The notes: a model not told the origin generated them from the sequence alone. Positions 12,024 to 60,614 are shown, counted from the stretch's first letter. The stretch is 64,000 nucleotides of DNA from Minisyncoccota bacterium (GCA_028716745.1 JAQUPE010000003.1:3779-67778); one strand, 5' to 3'. Numbers and translations are program-made.

Positions 12024-13450
12024 TAACTCTTATCCAAATAAATTACAGCGAGGATCACTCGGAAAAAATATTGCCGCTGGGCATTCTTTCGGTTGGAAGC
12101 GCGCTTAAAAAGAAGGGATATGATGTTCAGCTTATAAATATTAATGAAAGGCAGATAAATAGTACGGCAGAAAAAATTGCGGCAATGAAGCCCGACTTTA
12201 TAGGCATTTCAGTAATGACGGGAATTCAAACCCAGCATAGCGCCGAGTTTTCAAAGAAAATAAAACAATTGGGCAATATCCCGATAGTGTGGGGTGGAAT
12301 ACATCCGACTTTGTTGCCGGATCAGTGCATAAAAGAAGAATATATAGATTATGTAATTTATGGCGAAGGAGAAATAACCACTTTGGAATTTGCGGAGAAA
12401 TTTTATAAGGATAAGAATTTCAGCGGAATTTTGGGATTAATTTATAAAAAGGACGGCAAGATTATTACAAATTCCGAAAGGCCGCTTATTGAGAATCTGG
12501 ACGCCTGGAGGCTGGATTTCAGCTTGATTGATATGAATCAGTTTATTTTTCCTTTGAGCAAATATAAAAGGGTTATCGCTTATAAATCCAGCAGGGGATG
12601 TCCGTTTGGCTGCGCTTTTTGCTATAACTTCAAATTTAATAAAAGCAGATGGAGGGTTTGGTCTGAAGACGCGGTTATGGAAGATATAAATTTTTTGAAG
12701 GAAAAATATAAAATAGACGCGATAAAGTTTTATGACGATAATTTTTTTGTGGACAAAGAGCGTGCACTTTCATTGTTATCAAAAATAAATTTGCCGTGCC
12801 ATTTGGAAATAAGAATAGATTTTATAGATGATGAGCTGGTGGCTAAGCTGAAAAACTTTAATATTTTTGACATGCTTATCGGACTTGAATCGGGATCTGA
12901 AAGGATGCTTCAGCTGATTGATAAGCGTTTTACAGTTGAAAGATTGCTTCAGGGAGTGAGAAGCATAGCCAAATATGGATTGCATGCCACCTATTCTTTT
13001 ATAGTGGGACTGCCATCGGAAACAGAAAAAGATTTTAATGAAACAATCAGCGTAATGAATCAGGTTTATAAAATTCATCCTCAGGCGGGATTTACTGTTG
13101 GCGCTTATCTGCCGTATCCGGGATCAAAACTTTATGATTTCAGCTTGATGCAGGGGTTTGTTCCGCCGCAGAGAACTGAGGATTGGGGGAAAATAGACCG
13201 GTTTAGAAAGGATTTTAATTCTCCTTGGGTTAATGTAAGGAAAGTCTGGGTCATCAGAGAGTGCTTTAAGATTTTAAGCTGGGATCTGAAGATATTGAAA
13301 AAATGGTTTGAATTCAGAATAAGCCATAATTTTTATTCTTTTCCTATAGATATTTATGTCGTTGAATTTTTGGCCGGCATAGCGATAGAGGAGAAGTGGT
13401 TTGTGGGTAAGTTAATGCGCCGTTTATACAATAAATTAAGGAATAGATGA
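12008..13450 (+). CDS. B12-binding domain radical SAM protein (class B), paralog 2
   Basis: SRGCPFGCAFCYNF CxxxCxxC motif. Same architecture as the 9082 gene. Confidence 0.75.
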   Translation: MQKNMITLIQINYSEDHSEKILPLGILSVGSALKKKGYDVQLININERQINSTAEKIAAMKPDFIGISVMTGIQTQHSAEFSKKIKQLGNIPIVWGGIHPTLLPDQCIKEEYIDYVIYGEGEITTLEFAEKFYKDKNFSGILGLIYKKDGKIITNSERPLIENLDAWRLDFSLIDMNQFIFPLSKYKRVIAYKSSRGCPFGCAFCYNFKFNKSRWRVWSEDAVMEDINFLKEKYKIDAIKFYDDNFFVDKERALSLLSKINLPCHLEIRIDFIDDELVAKLKNFNIFDMLIGLESGSERMLQLIDKRFTVERLLQGVRSIAKYGLHATYSFIVGLPSETEKDFNETISVMNQVYKIHPQAGFTVGAYLPYPGSKLYDFSLMQGFVPPQRTEDWGKIDRFRKDFNSPWVNVRKVWVIRECFKILSWDLKILKKWFEFRISHNFYSFPIDIYVVEFLAGIAIEEKWFVGKLMRRLYNKLRNR

Positions 13451-15197: not shown

Positions 15198-15892
15198 AAA
15201 AATTATCAATAATAATGCCGGCCTATAATGAGAAAGGCACAATAGAAGAAATTATCAGCCGGATAAAAAAAGTTAATTTGGAAGGAATAGAAAAGGAAAT
15301 AATAGTCGTCGATGACGGCTCCAAGGATGGTACTAGGGAAATTTTGAGAAATATCCCGGATATCAAATATTTTTTCCATGAAAATAATCTTGGCAAGGGA
15401 GGGGCGACTAAGACAGGCCTTCAAGAAGCCACTGGCGACATTTTAATTATTCAAGATGCGGATTTGGAGTATGATCCCGAGGATTACAAAAAAATGCTCA
15501 AGCCGATTTTAAACGGACAGGCAGATGTTGTTTATGGTTCAAGATTTCTGACGGGGGAGCCCAAAAGAGTTTTGTTTTTCTGGCATCTCTTGGGCAATCT
15601 TTTTTTGACATTTCTTTCAAATTTATTTACCAGTCTGACTTTAACCGATATGGAGACTTGCTATAAGATGTTTAAAAAAGAAGTGGCGGATTCTTTTAAG
15701 GATAAATTAGAATCAAAGAGATTCGGCATAGAGCCGGAATTGACCGCCAGAATAGCAAAAGGAAACTGGAGAATATATGAAGTAGGAATTGCTTATTACG
15801 GAAGATCTTACAATGAGGGCAAAAAAATAAATTGGAAAGACGGCGTTGCCGCTATTTGGCACATAATAAGATTTAATTTGTTTACTAAATGA
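15194..15892 (+). CDS. GT2 family glycosyltransferase (Dpm1/GtrB-like)
   Basis: LSIIMPAYNEKGTIEE...VVDDGSKDGT...IQDADLEYDPED. GT2 DXD architecture, 232 aa. Confidence 0.7.
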   Translation: MKKLSIIMPAYNEKGTIEEIISRIKKVNLEGIEKEIIVVDDGSKDGTREILRNIPDIKYFFHENNLGKGGATKTGLQEATGDILIIQDADLEYDPEDYKKMLKPILNGQADVVYGSRFLTGEPKRVLFFWHLLGNLFLTFLSNLFTSLTLTDMETCYKMFKKEVADSFKDKLESKRFGIEPELTARIAKGNWRIYEVGIAYYGRSYNEGKKINWKDGVAAIWHIIRFNLFTK

Positions 15893-17304
15893 AAAGATTA
15901 AAAGTATTACTGATGAGGCCCGATTCTAGGTCGGATGAATTAATACCCCCGTTCGGTTTGGGGTATTTAATTACGGCTGCGAGAAAAAAACATGATGTTG
16001 AAATTTTGGACGGCATTAAAGAAAAATTAACGCCGGAAAAATTTAGAGAGATTTTAAAAGATAAAAAGTATGATGTGATAGGAATTCAAATTTTTACTTT
16101 TCACGTTATTTCGGTAAAAGAATATGTAAAAGTAATAAAAGAAGTGCTGCCTGAGGCAAAAATAGTATTTGGCGGACCGCATCCGTCTTGCGCTTATGCC
16201 AATATTTTCCAGCTTTTTCCTAATATAGATTGGGCCTTTAGAGGAGAGGCAGAAGTTGGCTTGGCAAAGCTATTGGATTTAATAGCGGAAAATAAGGAAG
16301 CCGATAGAAATAAGCTGATGGAAGTGCCTGGCCTCATATGGAGAATAGACGGCCGGACAGTGGCAAATCAGCAGTTGTTTGTTGAAGATTTAGATGAACT
16401 GGGGATGCCGAGCTGGGATATTTTAAAGCCGAATACTTATCCTTTGGCTCCTCATGGAGGGTTTTTCAAAAACTATCCGATTGCTCCGATTATCATTACT
16501 CGCGGATGCCCGTTTTCCTGCACTTATTGTGCCGGTTATTTGGTTAGCGGAAAGAAAATAAGATTTAGAAGCGTTGATAAAGTTATGGAAGAAATAAAGT
16601 GGCTTTACAACGAATACGGCATAAGAGAAATCCATATTGAAGACGATAATTTTACTTTCAATCCTGATTTCGTAAGAGAGTTTTGCAGAAAGATGAAGGA
16701 GTCCGGACTTGGAATAACCTGGACTTGTCCGAATGGAGTGCGTTTGGATACTTTGACGGAAGATCTTCTTTTGACGATGAAAGATGCGGGGCTTTACAGT
16801 ATTTCCGTAGGAATAGAATCCGGTTCGGAAAGAATATTGAAAGAAATGAAAAAAAGTTTGACCAAGGATGTAATAAGAGAAAAAGTCAGTCTGATTAAAA
16901 AGTGCGGTTTGGAAATTTCCGGATTTTTTATCATCGGTTATCCGGGAGAAACAATAAAAGATATAACAGAGACAATTGATTTTTCAATTGAGCTCGGACT
17001 TAAAAGGGCAGGATTTTCTCTTTTCAAGCCGTTTCCCGGAACGGAAATTACGAGAAAGCTAGTGGAAAGCGGGGAGCTCAAAGAAATGTCCGACGAGGAT
17101 TGGAGCAGATTTGTTTTGGCCGATGCCGTTTATGCTCCGCAGGGATTTACCAGAGAGCAGATGAAAGGATTGAGAAAAAAAGCTTTGAGAAGATTTTATT
17201 TCAGGCCGAAAATAGTTATAAAGTTTTTCAGCGAAGTGAGAAACATACAGCATTTAAAGATTGTTTTAAAAAGGATTTACAGCTGGCTATTTAAGGCTAA
17301 ATAA
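15889..17304 (+). CDS. B12-binding domain radical SAM protein (class B), paralog 3
   Basis: TRGCPFSCTYCAG motif with an N-terminal B12-binding-like domain. Confidence 0.75.
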   Translation: MKRLKVLLMRPDSRSDELIPPFGLGYLITAARKKHDVEILDGIKEKLTPEKFREILKDKKYDVIGIQIFTFHVISVKEYVKVIKEVLPEAKIVFGGPHPSCAYANIFQLFPNIDWAFRGEAEVGLAKLLDLIAENKEADRNKLMEVPGLIWRIDGRTVANQQLFVEDLDELGMPSWDILKPNTYPLAPHGGFFKNYPIAPIIITRGCPFSCTYCAGYLVSGKKIRFRSVDKVMEEIKWLYNEYGIREIHIEDDNFTFNPDFVREFCRKMKESGLGITWTCPNGVRLDTLTEDLLLTMKDAGLYSISVGIESGSERILKEMKKSLTKDVIREKVSLIKKCGLEISGFFIIGYPGETIKDITETIDFSIELGLKRAGFSLFKPFPGTEITRKLVESGELKEMSDEDWSRFVLADAVYAPQGFTREQMKGLRKKALRRFYFRPKIVIKFFSEVRNIQHLKIVLKRIYSWLFKAK

Positions 17305-39998: not shown

Positions 39999-41006
39999 AT
40001 GACAAAAAAGTACACAGCGGCCGTAATCGGCTGCGGAAGAATCGGAATGAAGATGGAACTGGATCCGAAAAGATCGCATCCCGCCACTCACGTCGGCGCG
40101 TGGTTGAATAACCCGCGGACGGAATTGGTGGCGCTTGCCGATCCGAATCCGGCCAGCAAAGAAGTCGCCGCGCAGGTGGCGCCCGGAGTACCGATGTATT
40201 CCAGCGCCGAAGAACTGTTCGCGGCGGTCAAGCCGGATATCGTTTCCATAGCGACCATCCTCGAAGGACATTACCCGGTGGTGATGGCGGCGGCGAAAGC
40301 CGGCGTGAAGGCGATAGTGTGCGAGAAGCCGATCGCCGAGAGCGTGGAACAAGGCCTGGAGATGATAGACGCCTGCAAGAAATCGGGATCGCTTCTGATA
40401 ATTAATCACTTCAGAAGGTTTGATCCTGTTCTTAACCAGTGGGCGCAGAAAGTCAGAGGCGGACTCATCGGGGACATCCAGCAGATAACTGGAACTTACT
40501 CGATCGGTCTTTATCACATGGGAACGCACCTTATAGATTTTATAAGGATGTTCGCCGGCGATATCGACTGGGTCATGGGCAAACAGAATACGCGGGCGCA
40601 TACCGCTATTCCCGGCGACACATGCGTGGACGCCATTATGGGAATGAGAAGCGGCGCGCGCGCGGCCATTCAATCGCTCAACGTCAAAGACTACAGCAAC
40701 TTCGAGGTGAGATTTCTGGGAACGAAAGGATCGGTGTGCGTTCGCGACATGGGCCGGGGAATAGAGTATATTCCGGTCCAGGAGTCAAAGCAGTACGGCG
40801 GTTTCTGCGAACTGCATCCCGACAAGCTCGAGTACCACGAGAATCCCTACTTCGCCAAGATGACCTCAATGACAGACTACGTTGTGGCCTGTCTGGACGG
40901 GACTGTTGAAAACGGCAGTAAGGGAGAGGACGGTCTCGCTGTCCTGCGAGTTCTCATGGCTTTGAAAATGAGCGGAGAGGCGGATGGAAGCACAGTCGTT
41001 GTGTAA
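39999..41006 (+). CDS. Gfo/Idh/MocA family NAD(P)-dependent oxidoreductase (GC-rich copy)
   Basis: AAVIGCGRIGMK Rossmann motif, EKP catalytic motif (IVCEKPIAES) and a C-terminal alpha/beta domain. Roughly 58-60% GC versus ~35% flanks. Confidence 0.75.
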   Translation: MTKKYTAAVIGCGRIGMKMELDPKRSHPATHVGAWLNNPRTELVALADPNPASKEVAAQVAPGVPMYSSAEELFAAVKPDIVSIATILEGHYPVVMAAAKAGVKAIVCEKPIAESVEQGLEMIDACKKSGSLLIINHFRRFDPVLNQWAQKVRGGLIGDIQQITGTYSIGLYHMGTHLIDFIRMFAGDIDWVMGKQNTRAHTAIPGDTCVDAIMGMRSGARAAIQSLNVKDYSNFEVRFLGTKGSVCVRDMGRGIEYIPVQESKQYGGFCELHPDKLEYHENPYFAKMTSMTDYVVACLDGTVENGSKGEDGLAVLRVLMALKMSGEADGSTVVV

Positions 41007-41033
41007 AAACAAAAGCAAGAAAACATATGAGAA

Positions 41034-41063
41034 ACCCCCGGCACGTCCGGGGTGTTTTATTTT
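41034..41063 (+). terminator. Rho-independent terminator (CCCCGG-CACGT-CCGGGG + T-run) between the two oxidoreductase paralogs
   Basis: 6-bp GC stem, 5-nt loop and TGTTTTATTTT tail, directly downstream of the stop at 41006. Confidence 0.55.
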
Positions 41064-41073
41064 AATAAGACTT

Positions 41074-42084
41074 ATGGAAAAGAAAATTTATAAGGCGGCC
41101 GTAATTGGCTGCGGAAGAATCGGGGTTTTGCAGGAAAAAGACTGGGATATAAAACCGGCCACTCACGCTTTCGCGTTTTTAAAAAATCCGCGGACCAAGC
41201 TCGTGGCTGTTGCCGATTCAAATATTGAGAATTTAAATAAAGCGAAAAAGATGCTTCCGAAAGGCGTGAAGTTTTTTTCCGACGCGGAAAAACTTTTGCG
41301 CGAAATAAATCCGGATATTGTTTCGGTAGCGGTTCCCCGTGGCGGACATTGCGCATTGGTTGAACTTTTAACAAAATATAAAGCCCCGGCGATTATTTGC
41401 GAAAAGCCGATGGCTGATACAATTGAACAGGCGAAAAAAATGATAGCGGATTGCAAAAAATCAAAGTCATTGCTTTTGATAAATCATCAAAGAAGATTTG
41501 ACCCGGCTCTTAGTGAAATCAGAGACGAAATTAAAAAAGGAACTTTTGGAAAAATTCAGAAAGCCAGATGCCTTTATGTAAATGGGATGTGCAATACAGG
41601 AAGTCATGTAATCGATTATTTAAGATTTTGTTTGGGAGATATTAAATCGGTAAGCGCTGTTAAAAATATGCAGGCGGAAACTTATGATAAAAAAGATTAT
41701 TGCGTTGATGCGTCTTTTAAATTTAAAAATGGTACAGATGTAGTTTGGCAGTCGCTTGATAGAAGAGCGTATTGCATTTGGGAAGCGGAATTTTATGGAA
41801 CTAAAAAAGCGGTGAAAATTAGAGACTTGGGGCAGACGGTTGAAATAGTCGGTCTTAGGCCGAGCCGCCGCTATGTCGGATTTAAAGAGCTTGATCATGA
41901 AAAGCCGGAAAAATTGGGAAATCAAAACAGAAGTTTTTTTAAGGCGATGGCGCAGCACGTTGTTGATTGCTTGGATAAAAAAATAAAACCGGCGAGCACC
42001 GGAGAAGATGGATTAGCGGCTTTAAAAGTTTTGGCGGCGATTAAAAAAAGCGCGGAAAATAAAGGAAAAAGGGTTGACATTTAG
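41074..42084 (+). CDS. Gfo/Idh/MocA family oxidoreductase (AT-rich paralog of the preceding gene)
   Basis: Start moved to MEKKIYKAAVIGCGRIG. ICEKPMADT motif. Collinear ~40% aa identity with the 39999 gene but native AT-rich codon usage. Confidence 0.75.
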   Translation: MEKKIYKAAVIGCGRIGVLQEKDWDIKPATHAFAFLKNPRTKLVAVADSNIENLNKAKKMLPKGVKFFSDAEKLLREINPDIVSVAVPRGGHCALVELLTKYKAPAIICEKPMADTIEQAKKMIADCKKSKSLLLINHQRRFDPALSEIRDEIKKGTFGKIQKARCLYVNGMCNTGSHVIDYLRFCLGDIKSVSAVKNMQAETYDKKDYCVDASFKFKNGTDVVWQSLDRRAYCIWEAEFYGTKKAVKIRDLGQTVEIVGLRPSRRYVGFKELDHEKPEKLGNQNRSFFKAMAQHVVDCLDKKIKPASTGEDGLAALKVLAAIKKSAENKGKRVDI

Positions 42085-42161: not shown

Positions 42162-43649
42162 ATGTCTGATTTCAAAGTTCTGCTGCTTAGCATGAACATC
42201 AGGGCTGAAAGCATGATTTCGCCGGCAATCGGCCTTTTCTCCGCTCTTCTCAAAAGAGAGGGATTCAAGGTCGAAATGTTTGACACGACGCTTTACGATA
42301 TGGCGTCGCGGTATGCGGATCTGGACGAAGCCAAGAGGACGAATCTTATCGTGAGGCCGGGAAAGGCGGATGTCCGTCTGAAAATGACGGATCCTTACGA
42401 GGACTTCAGAAAGAAAACCGAAGAGTTCAAGCCGGACATCATTTGCGTTTCGGCAGTCGAGAGTCTGTTTTTTGTGACGATCGATTTTCTGAGGCGCGTG
42501 GACGACCTGAACATTCCGGTAATCGTCGGAGGGATTTTTACAACCTTCGCTCCGGAAATCGCCCTGAAGTTCAAAGAGGTGGATATGATTTGCCGGGGAG
42601 AAGGCGAGACGGCTATCGTCGAGCTGTGCAGAAGGATGAGACAGGGAAAAGATTGCTCCGATATTCCGAATTTGTGGATTAAAAACAAAAACGGAAATAT
42701 TTCGGAGAACCCGATTTCTTCGCCGGTCAACATGGATGAAAATCCTCTGATAGACCTGGGTATTTTTGAAGAAGCCAGGTTTCTCAAGGTGATGACCGGA
42801 AAAGTTTTCCGGATGATTCCGGTAGAGACCGATCGCGGATGTCCCTATGTCTGCACTTTCTGCAATTCTCACGCCTGGGATTTGTTTTATAAATCTCAGA
42901 CCGGAAAAAGATTTCACAGAAAAAAATCTTTGGCGGCCGTGGAAAGGGAGCTGCAGTATTATTACGACCAGAAGAAGTTCGACTTTTTCGGCTTCTGGGC
43001 GGATACCTTTATCAACTGCACCGACAAGGAGTTTGACGCTTTTTGCGAGATGTATAAAAAGTTCAGATTTCCTTTCTGGTGCCAGACGCGCGCGGAGACG
43101 CTTTCGTGGGATCGGGTAAAGAAACTGAAAGATCTCGGCTTGTACAGGATAGATATCGGGCTGGAACACGGGAATGAAAAATTCAGGAGGGAAAGGCTTC
43201 ACCGTCATTGTTCAAACGATGACATGGTGGAAAAGCTGAAGATCCTGAATGAATATGATATTCCGTATACGGTGAACAACATCATCGGTTTTCCCGACGA
43301 AACCAGGGATCTGATAATGGACACCGTTGAACTGAACCGCCTGATAAAATCCGATTCTGTAAGATGTTCGGTGCTCATGCCTCATCACGGAACAGAGCTG
43401 AGAAGGTACGCGGTGGAAAAGGGATATCTCAGGGCCGACAGTGTTTGTTCGATTGATACGAACGAGCCGGTCCTAAATATGCCTCAGATTTCCAGAAGCG
43501 AACTTAAGGGTTTGTTAAAAACTTTCGCGATGTACGTGAAGTTCCCGAAAGATCGCTGGCCGGAAATCGCAGCTGCCGAAAAGCCCACTCCCGAAGGAGA
43601 AAAGATTCACGAGAAGCTCCGGGAAGAATACGTAAGCAACTTTTTTTGA
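42162..43649 (+). CDS. B12-binding domain radical SAM protein (class B), paralog 4 (GC-richer)
   Basis: DRGCPYVCTFCNSH CxxxCxxC motif and an N-terminal B12-binding-like domain. Strong SD AGGAGGAATTCCAA upstream. Confidence 0.75.
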   Translation: MSDFKVLLLSMNIRAESMISPAIGLFSALLKREGFKVEMFDTTLYDMASRYADLDEAKRTNLIVRPGKADVRLKMTDPYEDFRKKTEEFKPDIICVSAVESLFFVTIDFLRRVDDLNIPVIVGGIFTTFAPEIALKFKEVDMICRGEGETAIVELCRRMRQGKDCSDIPNLWIKNKNGNISENPISSPVNMDENPLIDLGIFEEARFLKVMTGKVFRMIPVETDRGCPYVCTFCNSHAWDLFYKSQTGKRFHRKKSLAAVERELQYYYDQKKFDFFGFWADTFINCTDKEFDAFCEMYKKFRFPFWCQTRAETLSWDRVKKLKDLGLYRIDIGLEHGNEKFRRERLHRHCSNDDMVEKLKILNEYDIPYTVNNIIGFPDETRDLIMDTVELNRLIKSDSVRCSVLMPHHGTELRRYAVEKGYLRADSVCSIDTNEPVLNMPQISRSELKGLLKTFAMYVKFPKDRWPEIAAAEKPTPEGEKIHEKLREEYVSNFF

Positions 43650-43657
43650 CACGAAGT

Positions 43658-43684
43658 GCCGCCCCTCAAAAGGCGGCTTTTTTG
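43658..43684 (+). terminator. Rho-independent terminator (GCCGCC...GGCGGC + TTTTTT)
   Basis: Lies between the radical SAM stop (43649) and the asparagine-synthetase-like start (43734). It argues against the ORF-track start at 43656. Confidence 0.5.
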
Positions 43685-43733
43685 CCTTAATTTTTATAAA
43701 ACAAAGAGCCTATTTTTGGGGTTTTATTACTAT

Positions 43734-46700
43734 ATGTGCGGGATAGCCGGAATAATGGATTTTAAGAGCCAGAAGGTTGATGGGGAAATAATCAGGAAAA
43801 TGACCGAAAGCATGGCTCATAGAGGCCCTAATGGAGAGGGCGTTTTTTTATCTGGGAATATTGGGCTTGGACATCGTCGGCTTAGCATTTTGGATTTGAG
43901 CAATGCGGGCAGTCAGCCGATGACAGTTGGCGACGTAACGATTACCCATAACGGAGAAGTTTATAATTATTTGGAAATTAAAAAAGAATTGGATGGAGAA
44001 AAATATAAAAGCGGTACGGATACGGAAGTAATTATTCGCGCTTATGAAAAGTGGGGAGAAAAGTGCGTGGAAAAATTTAACGGAATTTTTGCCTTTGCGA
44101 TTTGGGATGAAAAGAAAAAACAATTATTTGCGGTTCGGGACCGTTTTGGCGTCAAACCATTTTATTACTCTATTTACAAAAACAAATTTTATTTTGCCTC
44201 CGAGATAAAAGCGATTTTGGCAGCGGGTGTTCCGGCAAAGCCGAACGATAAAATTATCCATCAATATTTGACGACAGGATTTTATGATCATAGCGAAGAA
44301 ACTTTTTTTGAGGGCATCAAGCAATTAATGCCGGGGCATGCAATTTTTGCCAAAGACGGAAAAATTAAAATTTGGCGCTATTGGTATTTGCCGGAAAAGA
44401 TTCAAAATCTGAAAGGAATTAAAGATGAAGAATGTGTAGAAAAGTTTTTAAGCTTATTGGAAGATTCTTCCAAGCTTCAGCTTCGCAGCGACGTGCCGGT
44501 AGGAATAAGCGTGAGCGGAGGATTAGACTCCTCGCTTCTTACGGCGGCAGTTGATAAGGCAGCCGGCGGTCAGAGCAATTTTCAATTGTTTCATTTCGTT
44601 TATCAGGGAAAAAATTATGATTTAGAAACTCCTTTTGTTAATTTATTGGCTAAAAGATTGGGATGGGACAAGCCGAATATAGTTGAAGTTAATCCTGCGG
44701 ATGTTGAAAACATGGCTTCTAAAATAATGTGGCATGAAGAACAGCCATTTCCCGGTCTTCCTACTTCGGGCTGGCATAAGCTTTATCGGAACATAGGGGA
44801 TACAAAAACAGTAGTGACTTTGGAGGGGCATGGAGGCGATGAAATGGCGGCCGGTTATGACTATTATGTGGGCAGTTTTCTTTTGGATGTTTTAAATGAG
44901 CGAGGCGCAGAAGCTATGCTGAGGGAATGCGAGGCTATAGCTGAAATTAGAGGCTTAAAATGGGGTCAAGAACTGGATTCATTCATTGAAAATGGATTGA
45001 TGGCATATGCTGGCGGAGGAATTTCTGCTGATTCTTCCAAGTTTATTAACACGGATTGTTTAAATAATAAATTTGTGAAAAACGATTTTCCGAAGCCGAA
45101 ATTTGAAGAACCATTCGATTCTTATTTATTAAACATACAGTTTAGAGAATTGATGCATACTAAGCTGCCGAGAGTGCTGAGAAGCGTTGACCGCGAGTCT
45201 ATGGCGTTTAGCCGAGAACTTCGCGTTCCGTTTTTAGACCATCGTTTAGTGGAATTTTCTTTTTCTTTGCCATTGGAGCAAAAAATACACGGCGGGCACT
45301 TAAGGTATTTTATGAGAAATGCAGCTGCAAAATTTCTTCCAAAAGAAATTAGCCACATGCCAAAGCGTTCTTTGCCTAATCCGCAAAGACAGTGGTTCCA
45401 GAACGAATTAAAGCCGTGGATTTTTGGAATATTATCATCGGAATCTTTTAGAAAAAGGAAATATTTCAATCAGGAAGCGGTTTTAAAAGAATACGAAAAT
45501 TATTGCCGGCAGCCGAATCCGATAAATTCTTTTCATATTTGGCAATGGGTCAATTTAGAATTATGGCTGAGAACCTTCATTGATTCCGATATGAGCGCCA
45601 ATGACGGCGCAAAAACTATTTTTTTTGTTATTGCGACTATGGCGCGCGTCAATTTTATCCTTCGCACGGATATATTTAAAATTTTAAAAGAAAAAGGTTA
45701 TCGCTTAATTGTAATATCTCCTTTCTATAAAGAGGATTGGTTTATAAAAGAATTCGGCGGTCCAAATGTGATTTTTGAAAAACTTGTCAGAAGGGGGCGA
45801 TTGGCGAAAATTTGGGAAAATTTCAGAAATAAAGTTTTATTGATTAATAACCCGAGACTCGAACGTTGCAAGGAAATTCATTCTTGCGCCAGGAAATTTT
45901 ACCGCAAAAAGGGAATTTTGAGCGGTCTCTGGAGGGAGTCAAAGAATATTTTTTATAGTTTTATTTTAGCGATAATTCCCAGAAAATTGCGCGGCTCAGT
46001 TGTTTTTTGGGCAAAAGTTGGTTTTTATTTTTTGACCAAAAAAGATCATAGAGATTTGTTCAAAAAATATAAGCCGGCAGTGGTTGTTATGGCAAGTGCC
46101 GGAGCAGAGGGGGAAAACATACCGTTTTTGGTTAGTTGCATAAAATTCAATGTTTTGTCCTTTGCCGTTGATAATAATATAGATGTCTTTCAGTTCAGGT
46201 ATTTCAGCAGGCCTAGAAAAGTTACTAAATGGGCTCTTTTTAGCGAAATTCAGAAAAAAGAAGCTATGGAAATGCAGTTGGTTCCGGAATCCGAGCTGGC
46301 GGTTACGGGTCCTGCCAGGTATGACCATTACTTCAAGGGATTCAAGCCCATGCCCCGTGAAGAATTTTTCAAAAAGATAGGCGCAGATCCGAAGAAAAAG
46401 CTGATTACTTTTGGAGCAAAAACGCCAATGATTTATCCGCATAACGGGGATATTATAGATATAATTTACGAAGCCATAAGCAAGAATCATTTTTCTAAGC
46501 CAGCTCAGCTATTCATTCGTTTTGATCCCGGCCATAATCCGGCGCAATATAAGGATTTGTCAAAGAAGGCTATTTTCGAAAGAGCTGAAGATTTTTCGCA
46601 TCGTGATCATATCGCAAATCTTTTGTATTATAGCGATGTTGTTATAAGTATGGGATCGACTTTTTGCATAGAGGCTTGCATGGCTGGAACCCCGGCTTTA

Positions 46701-46979
46701 TGGGTAGGCTTTGATGGTTATAAAAAATATCCGAATATAAAAGATTCTTACAGGTATGTGTATGAGCTGGATTTATTTAAGAGGCTTTTGTCCAGCGGAG
46801 GAATACCGCTGGTTGAATCGCCGGAGATGCTGGTTGGGCAGATAGAAAAATATTTGAAAAATCGAGATTTGGATAAAGATAAAAGGCAAAAGTTAATGGA
46901 CCAGGAATATTTTGGGCTGGATGGCCATGCGGGAGAGAGGATAGCTGATTTGATAATTGATTTGGTTGAAAATAATTAA
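43734..46979 (+). CDS. Fusion protein: N-terminal AsnB-type glutamine amidotransferase (asparagine synthetase family, PseA/WbpS-like) plus C-terminal ~450-aa GT-B-like domain
   Basis: Starts MCGIAGI (Ntn-hydrolase Cys1). The SVSGGLDSS PP-loop lies at about aa 290. From about aa 640 (MARVNFILRTD...) the sequence matches the downstream paralog, which has GSTFxIEAxxxGTPAxWV GT-B C-domain-like motifs. Confidence 0.7.
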   Translation: MCGIAGIMDFKSQKVDGEIIRKMTESMAHRGPNGEGVFLSGNIGLGHRRLSILDLSNAGSQPMTVGDVTITHNGEVYNYLEIKKELDGEKYKSGTDTEVIIRAYEKWGEKCVEKFNGIFAFAIWDEKKKQLFAVRDRFGVKPFYYSIYKNKFYFASEIKAILAAGVPAKPNDKIIHQYLTTGFYDHSEETFFEGIKQLMPGHAIFAKDGKIKIWRYWYLPEKIQNLKGIKDEECVEKFLSLLEDSSKLQLRSDVPVGISVSGGLDSSLLTAAVDKAAGGQSNFQLFHFVYQGKNYDLETPFVNLLAKRLGWDKPNIVEVNPADVENMASKIMWHEEQPFPGLPTSGWHKLYRNIGDTKTVVTLEGHGGDEMAAGYDYYVGSFLLDVLNERGAEAMLRECEAIAEIRGLKWGQELDSFIENGLMAYAGGGISADSSKFINTDCLNNKFVKNDFPKPKFEEPFDSYLLNIQFRELMHTKLPRVLRSVDRESMAFSRELRVPFLDHRLVEFSFSLPLEQKIHGGHLRYFMRNAAAKFLPKEISHMPKRSLPNPQRQWFQNELKPWIFGILSSESFRKRKYFNQEAVLKEYENYCRQPNPINSFHIWQWVNLELWLRTFIDSDMSANDGAKTIFFVIATMARVNFILRTDIFKILKEKGYRLIVISPFYKEDWFIKEFGGPNVIFEKLVRRGRLAKIWENFRNKVLLINNPRLERCKEIHSCARKFYRKKGILSGLWRESKNIFYSFILAIIPRKLRGSVVFWAKVGFYFLTKKDHRDLFKKYKPAVVVMASAGAEGENIPFLVSCIKFNVLSFAVDNNIDVFQFRYFSRPRKVTKWALFSEIQKKEAMEMQLVPESELAVTGPARYDHYFKGFKPMPREEFFKKIGADPKKKLITFGAKTPMIYPHNGDIIDIIYEAISKNHFSKPAQLFIRFDPGHNPAQYKDLSKKAIFERAEDFSHRDHIANLLYYSDVVISMGSTFCIEACMAGTPALWVGFDGYKKYPNIKDSYRYVYELDLFKRLLSSGGIPLVESPEMLVGQIEKYLKNRDLDKDKRQKLMDQEYFGLDGHAGERIADLIIDLVENN
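45651..45762 (+). repeat. 112-nt tract 100% identical to 47023..47134 (direct repeat between tandem paralogs)
   Basis: Exact nucleotide identity encoding NFILRTDIFKILKEKGYRLIVISPFYKEDWFIKEFGG. Flanking sequence is diverged even at the protein level. Confidence 0.8.
46335..46405 (+). repeat. 71-nt tract 100% identical to 47709..47779
   Basis: Exact identity encoding KGFKPMPREEFFKKIGADPKKKL in both paralogs. Confidence 0.8.
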
Positions 46980-46980
46980 T

Positions 46981-48333
46981 ATGAAAACAATATTTTTAGT
47001 TATTACTGCTAATACGAGAGTAAATTTTATCCTTCGCACGGATATATTTAAAATTTTAAAAGAAAAAGGTTATCGCTTAATTGTAATATCTCCTTTCTAT
47101 AAAGAGGATTGGTTTATAAAAGAATTCGGCGGTCAGAGTGTTGTTTTTGAAAAATTTATTCCTAAAGCTAAAATTGGAGCCATATGGGATAGCTGGCGCA
47201 GCCAGATTTTGGCGATTAATCATCCAAAGATGAAAATTTTTAAAGAAACTCATGATTATGCCAGCCGGCGTTTTGTTAAGAAAAAAAATCCAGTTCAAAA
47301 AATAGCCAGCATTTTTAAGGGCTTCGTTTTGGCTTTAATTCCGGGATTTCTTAAAACCAGCGCGGATTTATGGGACAAAATAGGTTTTTATTTTTTAGTT
47401 ACTTCAAATCACAAAAAATTATTTAGAAAATATAGTCCGGCGGCTGTTGTTTTGGCGAGCGCCGGAGCTGAGGGTTCGGAAACGCCGTACATATCCTATT
47501 GCGGGAAATATGGGATTTTTTCGTTTGCCGTCGATAATAATATAGACGTTTTTGAATACCGCTATCTCAGCAAGCCAATGAGAGTTTCCAAGTGGACGTT
47601 GTTCGGGGATCCGCAAAAAGAGGAGGCAATAGAGATTCAAAAAATTCCCTCATCGGAATTAGTTGTACCCGGACCGGCGCGTTACGATTATTATTTTAAG
47701 GGATTCAAGCCCATGCCCCGTGAAGAATTTTTCAAAAAGATAGGCGCAGATCCGAAGAAAAAGCTGATAACCTATGGAGCCAAGATTCCGGTTATGTATC
47801 CTCACAACGGCGATATAATGAGAATTATTTTAGATGCCATTAAAGAAAGAAAATTTAATGACGCTCAATTATTTGTGAGATTTGATCCCAATCATGACGC
47901 TAAAATATACGGAGATTTATTGAAAGAAATTATTTATGAACGGGCAGAAGAGGCTCCTACGCGGGATCATTTGGCTAATTTATTTTATTATAGCGATGTT
48001 GTTGTTAGCATCGGGTCTACATTTGGCATAGAAGCATGTTTTACCGGGACGCCGGCAATTTGGGTAGGATTTGACGGCTATAAAAAATATGATGATCCTA
48101 AAGACGCTTACGGATTTATTTACGAACTGGATTTATTTAAAAGAATTGCGGATACCAAGGGGATTCCAATTGTTTGGACCAAGGAGGAATTAACGGATAA
48201 AATAAAAAAATATCTGGCGGATAGGAATTTAGACGCCGATAAAAGAAAAAAACTTATAGATCAGGAGTATTCTAATCCCGACGGACATGCCGGAGAAAGA
48301 ATCGCAAATATAATAATAGAAACAATAAAATGA
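46981..48333 (+). CDS. Stand-alone GT-B-like domain protein, tandem paralog of the C-terminal domain of the upstream fusion
   Basis: About 60% aa identity to aa 640-1107 of the 43734 gene, with the same motifs (PARYDYYFKGFKP, GSTFGIEACFTGTPAIWVGFDGYKKY). Start moved to MKTIFLVI. Confidence 0.55.
   Translation: MKTIFLVITANTRVNFILRTDIFKILKEKGYRLIVISPFYKEDWFIKEFGGQSVVFEKFIPKAKIGAIWDSWRSQILAINHPKMKIFKETHDYASRRFVKKKNPVQKIASIFKGFVLALIPGFLKTSADLWDKIGFYFLVTSNHKKLFRKYSPAAVVLASAGAEGSETPYISYCGKYGIFSFAVDNNIDVFEYRYLSKPMRVSKWTLFGDPQKEEAIEIQKIPSSELVVPGPARYDYYFKGFKPMPREEFFKKIGADPKKKLITYGAKIPVMYPHNGDIMRIILDAIKERKFNDAQLFVRFDPNHDAKIYGDLLKEIIYERAEEAPTRDHLANLFYYSDVVVSIGSTFGIEACFTGTPAIWVGFDGYKKYDDPKDAYGFIYELDLFKRIADTKGIPIVWTKEELTDKIKKYLADRNLDADKRKKLIDQEYSNPDGHAGERIANIIIETIK
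47023..47134 (+). repeat. Copy of the 112-nt identical tract (see 45651..45762)
   Basis: Direct comparison of the two stretches. Confidence 0.8.
47709..47779 (+). repeat. Copy of the 71-nt identical tract (see 46335..46405)
   Basis: Direct comparison of the two stretches. Confidence 0.8.
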
Positions 48334-49556
48334 AAAGAATAAGCCAATATTTTGGAAATTTTTTCGGAGTCAATATGAATTACCTTATTGGAGGGGGATT
48401 TTGGCTCGGCTTAGATCAGATTTTTTCTGCGGGAACAAGCATGGTTCTAACTGTGGCTTTCGCTAACCTTATTTCACAGGAAGCTTACGGGACTTATCGC
48501 TATATTCTTTCAATTTTCGGTATTTTAACGATTGCTACGCTGCCGAACATGAATATAGCCGTTCTAACATCGGTTGCCAGAGGATTTGAAAATTTATCAA
48601 AAGCTCTTAAGAGCAGGATTGAATGGGGATTTATAGGAACGATAGCCGGTTTTTCTTTGGCGGGTTTTTATTTTTATCAAGGCAATAATTTGCTTGGATA
48701 TGCTTTCATAATAATGGCTGTATTTCTTCCCTTCACGGATTCCTTTAATGTCTTTCTGGCTTTTTTCAGGGGGAGAAAGCTTTTTAGGGAACAAACTTTA
48801 TATTCCATTATCATAAAATCGGTATCGGCCGCTGCTTTGATTGCAACACTTTTTCTGACAGAAAATCTGCTGATAATTTTATTGGCTTTTTTTATTCCCT
48901 ATGTTTTATCAAGAGTATTTTTATATTGGCTTGCGGTTAAAAAGTTTTCTCCGAATAACGAAGTTGATCCGAATACAATTTCTTACGGGAAAAATTTAAG
49001 CCTTCTTCAGTTTTTAGGATTCGTAGTGAATTATTTGGATAATCTTCTGATATTTTATTATCTCGGCCCTATTTCCTTGGCTATTTATACGATGGCTATG
49101 GCGCCGATATCAAAGTTTCAGAAAGCCTTTTCTATATTGCCGGACTTGGCATTACCTAAGTTTTCCGAGCGGCCAGCCGAAGAAATAAAAAAGTATTTAA
49201 TTAAGAGAATTTTTAAATTGTTTATTTTTATAATTCCGATAGTTGCGGTCTATATTTTAATAGCCCCGATGATTTTTGATTTTTTTCTTCCCAAATACCA
49301 TGATTCCATATTTTATACGCAGCTGCTTTCTTTGGTATTTTTATGTCTTCCTTTTTCTCTTATTTATACTTTTATGCAGTCCAAGGCAATGCAGAAGCAG
49401 CTTTATATTTACAATATTTCTATTCGCATAATCCAGCTTATCCTCACAGTAATTTTTGTGGGTTTATACGGGGTGATGGGAGCCGTCATAGCCAGGCTGA
49501 TTTTCCAGCTTGCAGCAACGTCCATTCTTTTTGTTATTTTTAAGGCGGTTAAATAG
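48330..49556 (+). CDS. Polysaccharide biosynthesis protein / Wzx-like flippase (MOP superfamily)
   Basis: About 12 TM helices and no soluble domain. Size and topology match oligosaccharide flippases. Confidence 0.5.
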   Translation: MKRISQYFGNFFGVNMNYLIGGGFWLGLDQIFSAGTSMVLTVAFANLISQEAYGTYRYILSIFGILTIATLPNMNIAVLTSVARGFENLSKALKSRIEWGFIGTIAGFSLAGFYFYQGNNLLGYAFIIMAVFLPFTDSFNVFLAFFRGRKLFREQTLYSIIIKSVSAAALIATLFLTENLLIILLAFFIPYVLSRVFLYWLAVKKFSPNNEVDPNTISYGKNLSLLQFLGFVVNYLDNLLIFYYLGPISLAIYTMAMAPISKFQKAFSILPDLALPKFSERPAEEIKKYLIKRIFKLFIFIIPIVAVYILIAPMIFDFFLPKYHDSIFYTQLLSLVFLCLPFSLIYTFMQSKAMQKQLYIYNISIRIIQLILTVIFVGLYGVMGAVIARLIFQLAATSILFVIFKAVK

Positions 49557-49603
49557 TTGTATATTAGTAAGAATAATAGTATTTTAATTAATAAATAATT
49601 AAT

Positions 49604-50440
49604 ATGAATAATAAAAAAATAGGAATTGCGGGCGTTGGGATGGTGGGAAAACAAGTAGAAAGATGGTTTGAGCCCAAGGAAAACCAGGTTTTTGTTTACG
49701 ATAAATTTCAAAAATTAGGATCTTTAGAGGATTTAAATAAGGCAGAGATTATATTTTTATGCCTTCCTACTCCTTATAGGGATAATAATGAAGAGGGCAC
49801 TGATTTAGATGCATTTAAAGAAGTAATAAGGTTTTTTAAAGAACCGAAAATTTTTGTAATAAAATCAACCGTACCAGTCGGTTCAACAGACAAGCTGCAA
49901 GAAGAATTTAGTCAGCATTATTTTTTGCATAGTCCGGAATTTCTTACGGAAGTTACAGCCTGGGACGATTTTTCCAAGCCTTATTTGCAGTTAATCGGAT
50001 ATACGGAAAAAAGCAAAAAATTAGCGGAAGGAATAATGGATATTCTGCCCAAGGGGGAGCAGTCATTTATTTCGTCCGCAAAAGTAACCGAGATGTTCAA
50101 GTTTATCCGCAATGTTTTCCCTTCAATAAAAATTATTTTTATGAATCTTATTTATGATTTGTGCGGACCTCTTGGAATTGAATACGATGAAGTTAAAAAA
50201 ATTATGGCAGCCGATAAATGGATAGGCACAAGCCATTTAGAAGTGGTTCATAAGGGGTATCGCGGTTTTGGCGGGAAATGCTTGCCGAAAGACTTAAGGA
50301 TGCTTATTAAATTATGCAAAAATAAAAAAGTTAAAGCGGATCTTTTGGAAATAGTAGACAAGGTAAATTATGATCTTTTGAAGGGACAGGGCCTTGAGAA
50401 GAAGCTTGAAGAATTCTGGCTAAACAATCATAATCAGTAG
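49604..50440 (+). CDS. Nucleotide-sugar dehydrogenase family protein (UDP-glucose/GDP-mannose dehydrogenase-like), short form lacking the C-terminal domain
   Basis: KIGIAGVGMVGK NAD-binding motif and the catalytic-Cys signature GFGGKCLPKD (compare GFGGSCFPKD). Only 278 aa, and it stops about 50 aa after the Cys. Confidence 0.5.
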   Translation: MNNKKIGIAGVGMVGKQVERWFEPKENQVFVYDKFQKLGSLEDLNKAEIIFLCLPTPYRDNNEEGTDLDAFKEVIRFFKEPKIFVIKSTVPVGSTDKLQEEFSQHYFLHSPEFLTEVTAWDDFSKPYLQLIGYTEKSKKLAEGIMDILPKGEQSFISSAKVTEMFKFIRNVFPSIKIIFMNLIYDLCGPLGIEYDEVKKIMAADKWIGTSHLEVVHKGYRGFGGKCLPKDLRMLIKLCKNKKVKADLLEIVDKVNYDLLKGQGLEKKLEEFWLNNHNQ

Positions 50441-50459
50441 GTTAATTAGATTTAAAACA

Positions 50460-52673
50460 ATGATTCAATCTTTAAAGCTAGAAAAAGCGATTTCTTGGAT
50501 GATTAAAATAGGATTATTTATTATTCCTTTTATACCGCTTCATGTTTCAAACAGCCTGATATTTCCTTATATTACCGGAAAAGCTTTTATTTTCCGCACA
50601 ATAGTGGAAATAGTTTTTGCTCTTTGGATTTTTCTGGCGGTTTTTTATAAGCAATATCGTCCTCAAAAGAATTTTCTTCTTATAGCAATAGGTACTTTAG
50701 TTTTTGTGGCGGCTTTAGCCACTATTTTTGGAGTAAATCCAGTGAAGAGCATGTGGTCAAATTTTGAGAGGATGGAGGGGCTGATCACTTATTTGCATTT
50801 GTTCGCTTATTTTCTTGTTATGGGAAGCGTTTTGCAGAAAAGTGATTGGACAATATTGTTTAATTTTTTTGTGGCCGGCGGGTTGTTTGAAGGCGTTTAT
50901 TCTTTTTTCCAAAAACTGGAAGTATTGGTTCCACGTTCGTTTCAGGGCGGTTTCAGGGTAGACGGCACAATCGGCAATCCTTCTTATTTGGCCGCTTATT
51001 TGATGTTTGTTTTCGGTTTTTGCGTTTTGCTATGGATTAATGCCAAGAAAAAATCTTCCAAATATTATTATGCGTTTGCCGGCCTTTTTACTTTATTAAT
51101 TATCTTTTTTACGGCAAGCCGCGGACCAGCGCTCGGAATTATAATGGGAGCTTTTCTGGCCGGACTTCTGTATTTGATATTTAAGAAAAGCATTACTGAC
51201 AAAGAACGGACCTATAAGAAGGTAGCGGTTATTTTATTGGTTTTATTGGCGGCAATTATCGGTTCTTTGTTGCTATTAAAAGATTCTAAATTTGTTAAGA
51301 GCAGTGAAATTCTTGCCAGGCTTACATCTTTATCATTTACGGAGAGAACTATTTCTGCGCGTTTTACAATTTGGGGGATGAGCTGGCAGGGAGTTAAAGA
51401 GAGGCCTGTTTTGGGCTGGGGGCCGGAAAACTACGGAGTTGTTTTTTCCAAGTATTATCAGCCGGAGCTTTGGTGGCAGGAACCGTGGTTTGACAGGGCC
51501 CACAATGTTGTTTTTGACTGGCTGATAAGCGCGGGAATTTTGGGACTACTTAGTTATCTAAGTATTTTTGCCACAGCTCTTTATTATTTATGGAAGAACT
51601 ATTCTAAAAAAATAGTATTTTTTGAAGAAACACTTCTTATAACTTCCTTGTTTTTCGCTTATTTTTTCCAGAATTTGTTTATATTTGATAATATATCAAC
51701 TTATATTTGTTTCTTCGCCATTCTTTCTTACATATACAGCGTTTCTACTTCCGAAAGATTTGAAGCGCCTAAATCGAATTCTTCTTTGGACGCAAATAAT
51801 GTTTTTTTGGTAGGCGGATTACTGGCGATTTCTTTGGTTTTGGCTGTCTATTTTATTAATATCAAGACCTATATATCAAATCGCAGCCTGCTTGAAACCT
51901 TAAAGTATCAGAGCCAATACAGCGATTTGCCTATTTCTTTCGATTATTTTAATAAGGCTTTTAAAAACGATGTTTTAAATGCTCCGGAAATAAAAGAGCA
52001 ATTAATAAAGTTTGCCGTTGGAGTAAATAGTTTGCCGGCAGCGGATGAGGCTTTTAAGGCTGAGGTTGTCAAAAAAGCGATTGAAGAAGGAAAGAAGATG
52101 GTAGAACAAGATTATCTTGAGCCCCGTTCATATTTATTTTATGGGAACGCTTTAATGGCCGGAAAAGAATTTAAAGAAGCAGAAGAAATATTTAATAAGG
52201 CAATTGAACTTTCTCCAAAAAAGCAGCAGATATATTTTGAGTTATCGGATGTTTTTGTTTATAGAGGCGATTATAAGAGCGCAATTCCATTTTTAGAAGT
52301 AGCTTATAATCTTGATACTCGTTTTGAAATGGCCAGAATTAATTTGGCGGCTATATATATTTCGGCTGGCGAGGTGGAAAAAGCGGAAAAATTATTGATG
52401 GATGCTTACGGAACGATTGCGGTTCCTCATGAAATAATAGGCGCGGCATATGCAAAGATAAAAAGTTATGACAAGAGCATAGCCGTTTGGAAATTAGTTA
52501 AAGAAAGCGATCCTACTAGTTTGCGATACAGGAAAACCTTGGCGGGGATTTATAATTTAGCCGGTCAAAAGGAAAATGCGATAAAAGAAATTGAGGAAGC
52601 GATAGCGGCATTCCCGGAGTTTAAAGCGGCAGGAACTACATATATTGAACAGATAAAATCGGGCAAGATCTAA
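50460..52673 (+). CDS. O-antigen ligase/polymerase-like (Wzy_C) membrane protein with C-terminal TPR repeats
   Basis: The N-terminal ~430 aa are polytopic with the large periplasmic loop typical of the WaaL/Wzy family. The C-terminal ~250 aa contain TPR-like repeats (AEEIFNKAIELSPKK, AIPFLEVAYNLDTR). Confidence 0.55.
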   Translation: MIQSLKLEKAISWMIKIGLFIIPFIPLHVSNSLIFPYITGKAFIFRTIVEIVFALWIFLAVFYKQYRPQKNFLLIAIGTLVFVAALATIFGVNPVKSMWSNFERMEGLITYLHLFAYFLVMGSVLQKSDWTILFNFFVAGGLFEGVYSFFQKLEVLVPRSFQGGFRVDGTIGNPSYLAAYLMFVFGFCVLLWINAKKKSSKYYYAFAGLFTLLIIFFTASRGPALGIIMGAFLAGLLYLIFKKSITDKERTYKKVAVILLVLLAAIIGSLLLLKDSKFVKSSEILARLTSLSFTERTISARFTIWGMSWQGVKERPVLGWGPENYGVVFSKYYQPELWWQEPWFDRAHNVVFDWLISAGILGLLSYLSIFATALYYLWKNYSKKIVFFEETLLITSLFFAYFFQNLFIFDNISTYICFFAILSYIYSVSTSERFEAPKSNSSLDANNVFLVGGLLAISLVLAVYFINIKTYISNRSLLETLKYQSQYSDLPISFDYFNKAFKNDVLNAPEIKEQLIKFAVGVNSLPAADEAFKAEVVKKAIEEGKKMVEQDYLEPRSYLFYGNALMAGKEFKEAEEIFNKAIELSPKKQQIYFELSDVFVYRGDYKSAIPFLEVAYNLDTRFEMARINLAAIYISAGEVEKAEKLLMDAYGTIAVPHEIIGAAYAKIKSYDKSIAVWKLVKESDPTSLRYRKTLAGIYNLAGQKENAIKEIEEAIAAFPEFKAAGTTYIEQIKSGKI

Positions 52674-60396: not shown

Positions 60397-60471
60397 TGGA
60401 GCGGGTAACGGGAGTCGAACCCGTGTCTTCAGGTTGGAAACCTAACATAATAGCCGTTATACGATACCCGC
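60397..60471 (-). tRNA. tRNA-Gly (anticodon UCC), CCA encoded
   Basis: The reverse complement folds as GCGGGTA acceptor, anticodon stem TTAGG/CCTGA, loop TTTCCAA and T-arm ACGGG-TTCGACT-CCCGT, ending ...ACCCGCTCCA. Confidence 0.75.
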
Positions 60472-60614
60472 CTTCGCTGAGGCTTCGGCGGGCAAGCCCG
60501 CCATCATCGTTAAAGCCTTTGCGGGGCAAGCCCGCCATAATCATTAGAGCTCTTGCGGGACTGGTCCGCTTCAATATTTGATTTAAAAAGCTCTCATATC
60601 TATAATAAATTTAA

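Follow-up and report, generated by a model that had tools for sequence, protein, structure and literature searches.

Two identical tracts shared by diverged tandem transferase genes in a Patescibacteria surface-glycan island: probable footprints of recent gene conversion

Gene conversion and concerted evolution between bacterial paralogs have been documented (PMC6053082), also in Mycobacterium tuberculosis (PMC13061034, PMC12046097), and chimeras formed by recombination between paralogs are established in bacteria as well (PMC13626634). Among the transferases that act on surface glycans, the BFO_1060 family includes genetically characterised Pse- and Leg-derivative transferases of Tannerella forsythia (PMC5420450). 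Here we describe two adjacent, co-oriented transferase genes in a 64,000-nucleotide stretch of DNA from a Minisyncoccota bacterium (GCA_028716745.1 JAQUPE010000003.1:3779-67778; hereafter the window, with positions counted from its first letter), in which two tracts of perfect nucleotide identity interrupt an alignment that is otherwise saturated with synonymous differences. Judged from the sequence, it is highly probable that the tracts are footprints of recent, short, non-reciprocal gene conversion between these anciently duplicated genes. The genes, the tracts and the segment between the tracts are listed below, where pS and pN are the proportions of synonymous and nonsynonymous differences.

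43734 to 46979, plus strand: gene 1, an AsnB-type glutamine-dependent amidotransferase fused by read-through to a complete transferase domain of predicted GT-B fold (G1C).
46981 to 48333, plus strand: gene 2 (G2), a stand-alone transferase of predicted GT-B fold, 450 amino acids, full-length paralog of G1C.
45651 to 45762, plus strand: tract 1, copy A, 112 nucleotides, exact identity, in the G1C domain of gene 1.
47023 to 47134, plus strand: tract 1, copy B, 112 nucleotides, in G2.
46335 to 46405, plus strand: tract 2, copy A, 71 nucleotides, exact identity, in the G1C domain of gene 1.
47698 to 47768, plus strand: tract 2, copy B, 71 nucleotides, corrected coordinates, in G2.
45763 to 46334, plus strand: diverged N-domain core of G1C, bracketed by both tracts (counterpart in G2: 47135 to 47697); pS 0.82, pN 0.32.

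Direct comparison gave 112 of 112 identical nucleotides for tract 1, at an offset of 1372 and at the coordinates reported in a preliminary description of the locus. Tract 2 is also a perfect match, at an offset of 1363; its length and its first copy had been given correctly, but the second copy had been placed at 47709 to 47779, where only 20 of the 71 positions match in register, instead of at the real position listed above. The tract starts lie 1995 and 2679 nucleotides from position 43656 in gene 1 (45651 and 46335, counted from the first nucleotide of the reading frame as mechanically listed) and 42 and 717 nucleotides from the start of G2 at 46981 (47023 and 47698). As all four offsets are divisible by 3, every tract start falls on codon position 1 and the tracts have the same phase in both genes, as had been claimed. 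A pattern search of the window allowing up to three mismatches found exactly two copies of each tract, and a repeat scan of the whole window revealed no long exact repeats besides the two tracts.

Tract 1 encodes NFILRTDIFKILKEKGYRLIVISPFYKEDWFIKEFGG, the first beta-alpha-beta unit of the N-terminal Rossmann domain (residues 15-52 of a structural model of G2, described below), and tract 2 encodes KGFKPMPREEFFKKIGADPKKKLI, comprising the linker between the domains and the beginning of the first C-terminal Rossmann strand (model residues 240-263). In the secondary structure of the model, tract 2 runs from the end of the last N-domain helix through the linker helix into the first C-domain strand. 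Within the family no motifs are more conserved than the two that the tracts cover, RxNFILRTD...EFGG close to the N-terminus and FKPxPREEFFKxIGADPxKKLIT where the two domains meet, and tract 1 also takes in the family-variable residues YKEDWFIK.

Over the whole alignment of G1C and G2 (448 codons) the copies are 62% identical in amino acids and 66% in nucleotides, and outside the tracts 55% and about 60%, respectively. The earlier statement that identity was much lower at the DNA level than in the protein did not hold, as the two values outside the tracts are about equal. A substitution analysis along the paralog alignment, which the preliminary description had proposed, gave a clear separation: by the Nei-Gojobori method pS outside the tracts is 0.82 (saturated, and beyond Jukes-Cantor correction) and pN 0.28, compared to 0 differences over the 60 codons inside the tracts. 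By segment, pN is 0.32 in the N-domain core and 0.25 in the C-domain, and both open reading frames (ORFs) are intact and under purifying selection, with pN at 0.28 while pS is saturated. The sliding-window profile of pS has two troughs only, at the tracts, and their edges are abrupt. Three of the four tract edges are steep, with 100% identity giving way to about 50-65% over a few codons; the exception is the 5' flank of tract 1, with intermediate values (80% nucleotide identity, pS 0.53). Together the tracts make up only about 14% of the alignment, the remainder being saturated.

Because the tracts lie on the most conserved motifs, protein constraint had to be tested as a cause of the identity. 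Outside the tracts, residues conserved between the copies use the same codon in 45% of cases, and if full residue conservation is granted, all codons of a tract would be identical with a probability of 4e-13 (tract 1) or 3e-8 (tract 2). Shuffling the codon columns 20,000 times gave identical runs of 49 nucleotides at most, against the 112 and 71 observed, which lie far outside the range of chance; the next longest identical run between G1C and G2 is 18 nucleotides. Orthologues at six other Patescibacteria loci are only 52-72% identical to the window in the tract regions at the nucleotide level. A second paralog pair of the same family, at locus L018 (copies about 2.6 kb apart, 52% identical in amino acids and 59% in nucleotides overall), has 62% and 65% nucleotide identity in the regions equivalent to the tracts and a longest identical run of 17 nucleotides, and protein identity in the tract columns is 61-75% among other family members compared to 98-100% between G1C and G2. 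As the orthologues and the L018 pair reach only 52-72% nucleotide identity in these conserved regions, protein constraint cannot explain the identity of the tracts, and on the synonymous-site statistics, the shuffles, the orthologues and the L018 pair taken together, chance and protein constraint were ruled out as its cause. In three double-transferase fusion proteins of more distant relatives (at loci L020, L021 and L022) the longest identical runs between the halves are 9-24 nucleotides, and no conversion tracts were found in these double-domain proteins or in the L018 pair.

The age of the duplication is another matter than the age of the tracts. Outside the tracts the identity between G1C and G2 is 55%, that of G1C to the orthologues 44-54% and that of G2 to the orthologues 42-49%. 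A neighbour-joining tree of the same positions is star-like and joins G1C and G2 as sisters with a bootstrap value of only 63%; the tracts themselves have too few positions to be resolved in a separate tree. Since the copies are barely closer to each other than to their orthologues, the duplication is old, or one copy was acquired from a related lineage, and by the same comparison the identical tracts are very young relative to the duplication.

The gene-conversion reading put forward in the preliminary description is strongly supported by the pS of 0 against 0.82, by the abrupt boundaries and by the controls from orthologues and a second paralog pair. The observed pattern is one in which saturated and zero-divergence segments alternate with sharp borders, with the zero-divergence ones on the most conserved motifs, and comparable pairs with greater spacing or divergence are free of such patches. 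Two recent short-tract exchanges are the most economical mechanism. The conserved motifs had probably kept the highest residual DNA similarity and served as a seed for strand invasion or replication template switching, and the exchange between the copies, which are 1.37 kb apart, would then have been RecA-mediated or a result of such switching. A patch converted at a conserved motif would probably be functionally neutral, and conversions at these sites would for that reason survive. In the diverged N-domain core (pN 0.32) or the C-domain (pN 0.25) conversions may not have been initiated or may have been purged, as converting the core or the C-domain would erase functional differences and hence be selected against.

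Some points weigh against gene conversion. Two zero-divergence tracts require two near-simultaneous events or one complex event. The copies do not differ in G+C content, in G+C content at third codon positions (GC3) or in their nucleotide identity to orthologues, and these measures give no signal of donor and recipient. The evidence comes from one sequence derived from a metagenome-assembled genome (MAG), thus from one strain and one assembly, and nothing more than 52% identical to G2, the source proteins aside, is present in a collection of 5.8 billion proteins. Close relatives, strains and recombinants were sought with a word-indexed search of this collection, HMMER of 1.84 billion representatives, a scan of GTDB genomes, a scan of JGI metagenomes and a contig look-up for exact proteins, and none of these gave a relative closer than 52% to G2 or a further AsnB-transferase fusion.

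Of the alternatives, the first, and an improbable one, is that the tracts are maintained as recombination hinges through which a population could change the transferase partner of the amidotransferase and, with it, the surface glycan. The locus would then have the states AsnB-G1C followed by G2; AsnB-G2, after deletion at tract 1; and a chimera of the N-domain of G1C and the C-domain of G2, after deletion at tract 2 or after replacement of the N-domain by a double crossover. By geometry, a crossover at tract 1 deletes 1372 nucleotides and joins AsnB in frame to essentially the whole of G2, which confirms the arithmetic of the in-frame deletion of about 1.37 kb described earlier, and a crossover at tract 2 deletes 1363 nucleotides and leaves an in-frame chimera with its N-domain from G1C and its C-domain from G2. 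Besides the reading frame kept by both deletions, it speaks for hinges that the tracts lie on either side of the N-domain core, which with its pN of 0.32 is the most diverged segment, that the product of the locus is a surface glycan and surface glycans are typically subject to variation, that Pse- and Leg-specific alleles of T. forsythia differ N-terminally while their C-terminal 241-246 amino acids are identical (PMC5420450), and that chimeras from paralog recombination arise readily in Escherichia coli experiments (PMC13626634).

However, there are exactly two copies, both full-length intact ORFs, and they stand in series within one string of genes of the same direction, where no terminator separates them; silent or partial donor cassettes are absent. 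No inverted repeats were found in the region from 43 to 50 kb and none of relevance across the whole window, and among the 54 screened ORFs of at least 150 amino acids none matched a recombinase, integrase or transposase in Pfam (three of them lacked any Pfam match, and the screen did not extend to shorter ORFs). Public data contained no recombinant or chimeric protein, and the feature is not conserved, as the other paralog pairs of the family are without such tracts. A deletion through direct repeats cannot be undone, and its geometry thus argues against a switch. The idea of a built-in switch or silent cassette, also raised in the preliminary description, is for these reasons not upheld: the genes are two intact, co-oriented copies without inverted repeats or a recombinase match, and in-frame deletion through the direct repeats could be a by-product and a source of instability instead of a designed switch. 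If hinges were real, they would bracket the N-domain core as the part that determines specificity, and episymbiotic Patescibacteria cells would make the alternative locus states at a useful frequency. This would be a minimal two-gene cassette system without a dedicated recombinase, varying a surface glycan that contains nonulosonic acid.

An artefact of assembly or consensus calling would mean that the tandem pair or its identity was made by metagenome assembly or polishing, with alleles of different strains stitched together or near-identical segments homogenised. The sequence is indeed a MAG contig from a single assembly, and the AsnB-transferase fusion is unique in the databases searched. 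On the other hand, stitching of alleles needs an invented junction, and the ATG of G2 lies 1 nucleotide past the stop of gene 1 without any remnant of AsnB. Both ORFs are intact and lie in different frames, the three local offsets between the copies (1372, 1363 and 1360) come from codon indels, and a related genome (L018/L012) also has two paralogs at this locus. Tracts of 112 and 71 nucleotides are below common read lengths, so single reads can anchor both flanks, which likewise counts against an artefact. Homogenisation polishes only segments that are already near-identical and would therefore still imply conversion. Assembly error is accordingly unlikely.

It is less probable still, and in our opinion very doubtful, that a recent duplication was followed by mosaic import, in which case the tracts would be the remnant of identical copies and the diverged segments would have been replaced by foreign alleles in one copy. 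Such import yields the same mosaic pattern, and allelic mosaicism is known in related transferases (PMC5420450), but at least three replacements are needed (the 5' 14 codons, the 572-nucleotide core and the 570-nucleotide 3' part), sparing only the most conserved motifs. Furthermore, the distance to any known homologue is about the same from either copy, the two are weakly sister to each other outside the tracts (63% bootstrap), and the G+C and GC3 of the diverged segments are alike in both copies. Selection at the nucleotide level, by which the tracts would carry a functional element (RNA structure, internal promoter or binding site) conserved in both genes, is effectively refuted by the orthologue comparison, because the tract nucleotides are not conserved in orthologues or in the L018 pair (52-72%); a few sigma-70-like consensus matches lie in or near the tracts, but their count in the region is 29 against 22.7 +/- 4.1 in shuffles, not clearly above. 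An embedded RNA or regulatory element was also rejected as a candidate in its own right, with this promoter-like count, with RNA folding of the tracts that on either strand is no better than that of shuffles (z = +0.3, -0.5, +0.4, -0.8), and with an Rfam search of the window that matched tRNAs only and nothing in the tracts.

Gene 1 starts at the ATG at 43734 (MCGIAG, with the N-terminal nucleophile cysteine of class-II amidotransferases) and consists of the AsnB part at about 43734-45590 (residues 1 to about 620) and G1C at about 45609-46976 (the last approximately 455 residues). The mechanical listing had given a GTG start at 43656 (43656-46979). This start is spurious in view of a terminator-like G+C-rich hairpin with a T-run at 43658-43677, between the stop of a B12-radical-SAM gene (43649) and the ATG of AsnB, and gene 1 may begin a new transcription unit. 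The AsnB part scores 412.3 bits on TIGR01536 (cutoff 267.1), has the Pfam domains GATase_7 and Asn_synthase and carries a cysteine after the initiator methionine; these features assign it to the family of asparagine synthase B-type amidotransferases. The gene 1 product is identical to the NCBI protein P0052 (1081 amino acids, annotated 'asparagine synthase'), which is from the same MAG as the match of G2. The ATG of G2 follows 1 nucleotide past the gene 1 stop, and its product, P0001, is 100% identical to NCBI PHN74_01805 of a Candidatus Pacebacteria MAG.

The AlphaFold2 model of G2, built with 46 homologues, has a predicted local distance difference test score (pLDDT) of 94.1 and a predicted template modelling score (pTM) of 0.90, and shows two Rossmann-like domains, which is the GT-B architecture. 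Foldseek of the model against the PDB gave probability 1.0 to many GT-B transferases, 2-epimerases and TarL, but these matches are generic to GT-B and assign no specific family. The family profile matches TarL 8va1 at E=0.004. On Pfam PF04464 (Glyphos_transf, gathering score 22.1 bits) G2 reaches 17.2 bits and G1C has no match, both thus being under the threshold, while several relatives carry precomputed PF04464 matches. On NCBIfam NF046086, the BFO_1060 family glycosyltransferase profile, G1C scores 60.7 bits and G2 64.2 bits against a cutoff of 200, and only the C-terminal approximately 160 residues are covered. With the model as the basis, G1C and G2 are predicted to fall within the GT-B fold superfamily (TagB/TagF-like). 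The distant kinship to the BFO_1060 family makes a role in the transfer of nonulosonic acid or a related sugar reasonable, and it is most likely that the two encode sugar or nonulosonic-acid transferases of a surface-glycan pathway.

Elsewhere in this family, the proteins P0234, P0236, P0254 and P0291 (loci L020, L021 and L022) are about 900 amino acids long, contain two tandem transferase domains and are encoded beside NeuB and cytidylyltransferase genes. Their halves are 29-39% identical (P0236, P0254, P0291). Tandem duplication, also in fused form, is recurrent in the wider transferase family. Given this, and given the mosaic alleles of the Pse/Leg transferases in T. forsythia (PMC5420450), the earlier remark that the pattern is unexpected in a biosynthetic enzyme was overstated.

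The first of the two transferases, G1C, is physically coupled to the AsnB-type amidotransferase. In five independent relatives (Parcubacteria Athens0714_26; the ENA/JGI/Logan lineage L004-6; the groundwater Parcubacteria L009; and the Saccharibacteria MAGs L010 and L011) a separate AsnB is followed by a stop, a spacer of about 3-24 nucleotides, an ATG, a single transferase and then Wzx. The window differs from these relatives twice, in its tandem second transferase copy and in the loss of the AsnB stop codon. The AsnB of the relatives ends with ...FID(K)*, and in the window the frame runs on as FID-SDMSANDGA-KTIFF, with a linker of nine residues and the junction within 45540-45640, which suggests that the fusion arose through loss of the AsnB stop codon. 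The probable ancestral ATG of the transferase is still in frame at 45591, and independent translation of the transferase part is therefore conceivable. No other AsnB-transferase fusion was found in the word-indexed search of 5.8 billion proteins or in the exhaustive HMMER search of 1.84 billion representatives; as the word-indexed search missed an 877-amino-acid WbuX-transferase fusion, 'unique' here means not seen and not proven absent.

The latter fusion belongs to a Harrisonbacteria-like locus (L018 9001-15610, equal to L012 77-6356; Logan SRR6240789, JGI Ga0210057_1003538) that is syntenic with the window. It has a stand-alone transferase (P0004) and a paralog fused to an N-terminal WbuX/PseA-type N-acetyl-sugar amidotransferase (TIGR03573, 877 amino acids), and a second WbuX together with HisH- and HisF-like genes lies between the two transferase paralogs. 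In another relative, P0007 is a transferase-methyltransferase fusion of 771 amino acids. The L018 fusion is convergent, with the same transferase family and an amidotransferase that is non-homologous to AsnB, and amidotransferase-transferase fusions have thus arisen at least twice in these nonulosonic-acid loci, once with AsnB and once with WbuX. Two independent fusions suggest a tight coupling of sugar amidation or amidination with transfer, and together with P0007 they hint that the transferases work physically coupled to sugar-modifying enzymes.

Nearly the whole window is a surface-glycan island with GT4, GT2 and PMT-like transferases, four B12-radical-SAM paralogs and many methyltransferases. 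A nonulosonic-acid pathway occupies approximately 30-42 kb (DegT aminotransferase, formyltransferase, two CMP-sugar cytidylyltransferases, NeuB, GNAT and two GFO oxidoreductases). After the pathway come gene 1, G2, a Wzx flippase, a UDP-sugar dehydrogenase, a Wzy/O-antigen-ligase-TPR protein, a second flippase, an epimerase and an initiating sugar-phosphate transferase. The gene directly downstream of G2 is as follows.

48330 to 49556, plus strand: Wzx-type flippase, Pfam Polysacc_synt; synteny in L004, L009, L010, L011 and L018.

The module of AsnB, GT-B transferase and Wzx, in part also with a short UDP-sugar dehydrogenase and Wzy/O-antigen-ligase-TPR, is conserved beside NeuB and CMP-sugar genes in Parcubacteria and Saccharibacteria MAGs (seen in L001-L011, L013, L015, L017 and in the window at 43734-52673). 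Within the papers searched, no work on nonulosonic acids in Patescibacteria was found. The ORF at 49604-50440, like UDP-glucose/GDP-mannose dehydrogenases, has 278 amino acids, compared to 300-314 in relatives at the same position; its Pfam N-domain match begins at profile position 73 and a C-terminal domain is lacking, and it may be a truncated or specialised form. The four paralogous B12-binding radical-SAM genes (9082-10542, 12008-13450, 15889-17304 and 42162-43649) are interleaved with methyltransferases and GT4/GT2 genes and share no long exact repeats; they suggest unusual C-methylation or other radical chemistry on the glycan. The GFO/IDH/MocA oxidoreductase paralogs at 39999-41006 and 40984-42084 are in tandem with an overlap of 23 nucleotides, form a pair that is conserved in L004 and L018, and over the Rossmann glycine motif share 41 nucleotides that are 85% identical. 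A cluster of five tRNA genes lies at 60.4-62.4 kb, and a 34-nucleotide unit in about 2.1 tandem copies (86% matches) at 60480-60559 adjoins tRNA-Gly(tcc) on the minus strand (60397-60471). The GC skew is positive in all 2-kb bins from 2001 on and slightly negative in bin 1-2000, and nearly all genes of the window are on the plus strand, which is consistent with a single replichore with a strong leading-strand gene bias.

It seems that the locus is a clean case, unambiguous in its statistics, of old tandem paralogs that underwent gene conversion in patches within a Candidate Phyla Radiation genome. The example shows homologous recombination at work within such small genomes and conversion confined to functionally interchangeable motifs. 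In addition, direct repeats of 112 and 71 nucleotides could break or mis-join assemblies of the locus and generate hybrid transferases. Nothing here changes a paradigm, and the fusion and the module context are arguably more interesting than the tracts.

Compared with known systems, the likeness to cassette-based antigenic variation (pilE/pilS, vlsE/vls, msp2) is that identical segments flank diverged ones in surface-related paralogs. In contrast to these systems, the window has two full-length genes in series in place of an array of silent partial cassettes and a single expression site, and its screened ORFs and sequence gave no specialised recombination element or recombinase. The tracts are thus not a member of the cassette-variation systems, and the resemblance is superficial. 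The transferases Tanf_01245, TFUB4_00887 and BFO_1060 of T. forsythia (PMC5420450) offer a parallel, being GT-B/TagB-like proteins of about 445 amino acids encoded beside CMP-nonulosonic-acid biosynthesis genes and having a mosaic sequence, theirs with an identical C-terminal part of 241-246 amino acids and a diverged N-terminal part. Their mosaic, however, is between alleles of strains and involves a whole domain, whereas in the window it is between tandem paralogs of one genome and involves two short patches, and with 61-64 bits on NF046086 (cutoff 200) the window proteins are distant relatives of that family at best. In the E. coli chimeras of icd/icdC and cpsG/manB (PMC13626634) direct repeats in co-oriented paralogs led, as they could here, to deletion of the interval with a single in-frame hybrid gene remaining, but the window shows the substrate and not the product, and the interval is 1.37 kb compared to tens of kb.

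The closest likeness is to gene conversion between bacterial paralogs such as tufA/tufB and the rRNA operons (PMC6053082), with its non-reciprocal exchange, its patches without synonymous differences, its sharp borders and its preference for conserved segments and nearby copies. In contrast to the concerted evolution of whole genes, conversion in the window is patchy, covers approximately 14% of the alignment and joins functionally diverged copies, and it differs from the known cases also in its host, an uncultured Patescibacteria MAG, and in its genes, glycan transferases of which one is fused to AsnB. Read as gene conversion, the tracts are another instance of a known process, patchy conversion between tandem paralogs, by a textbook mechanism.

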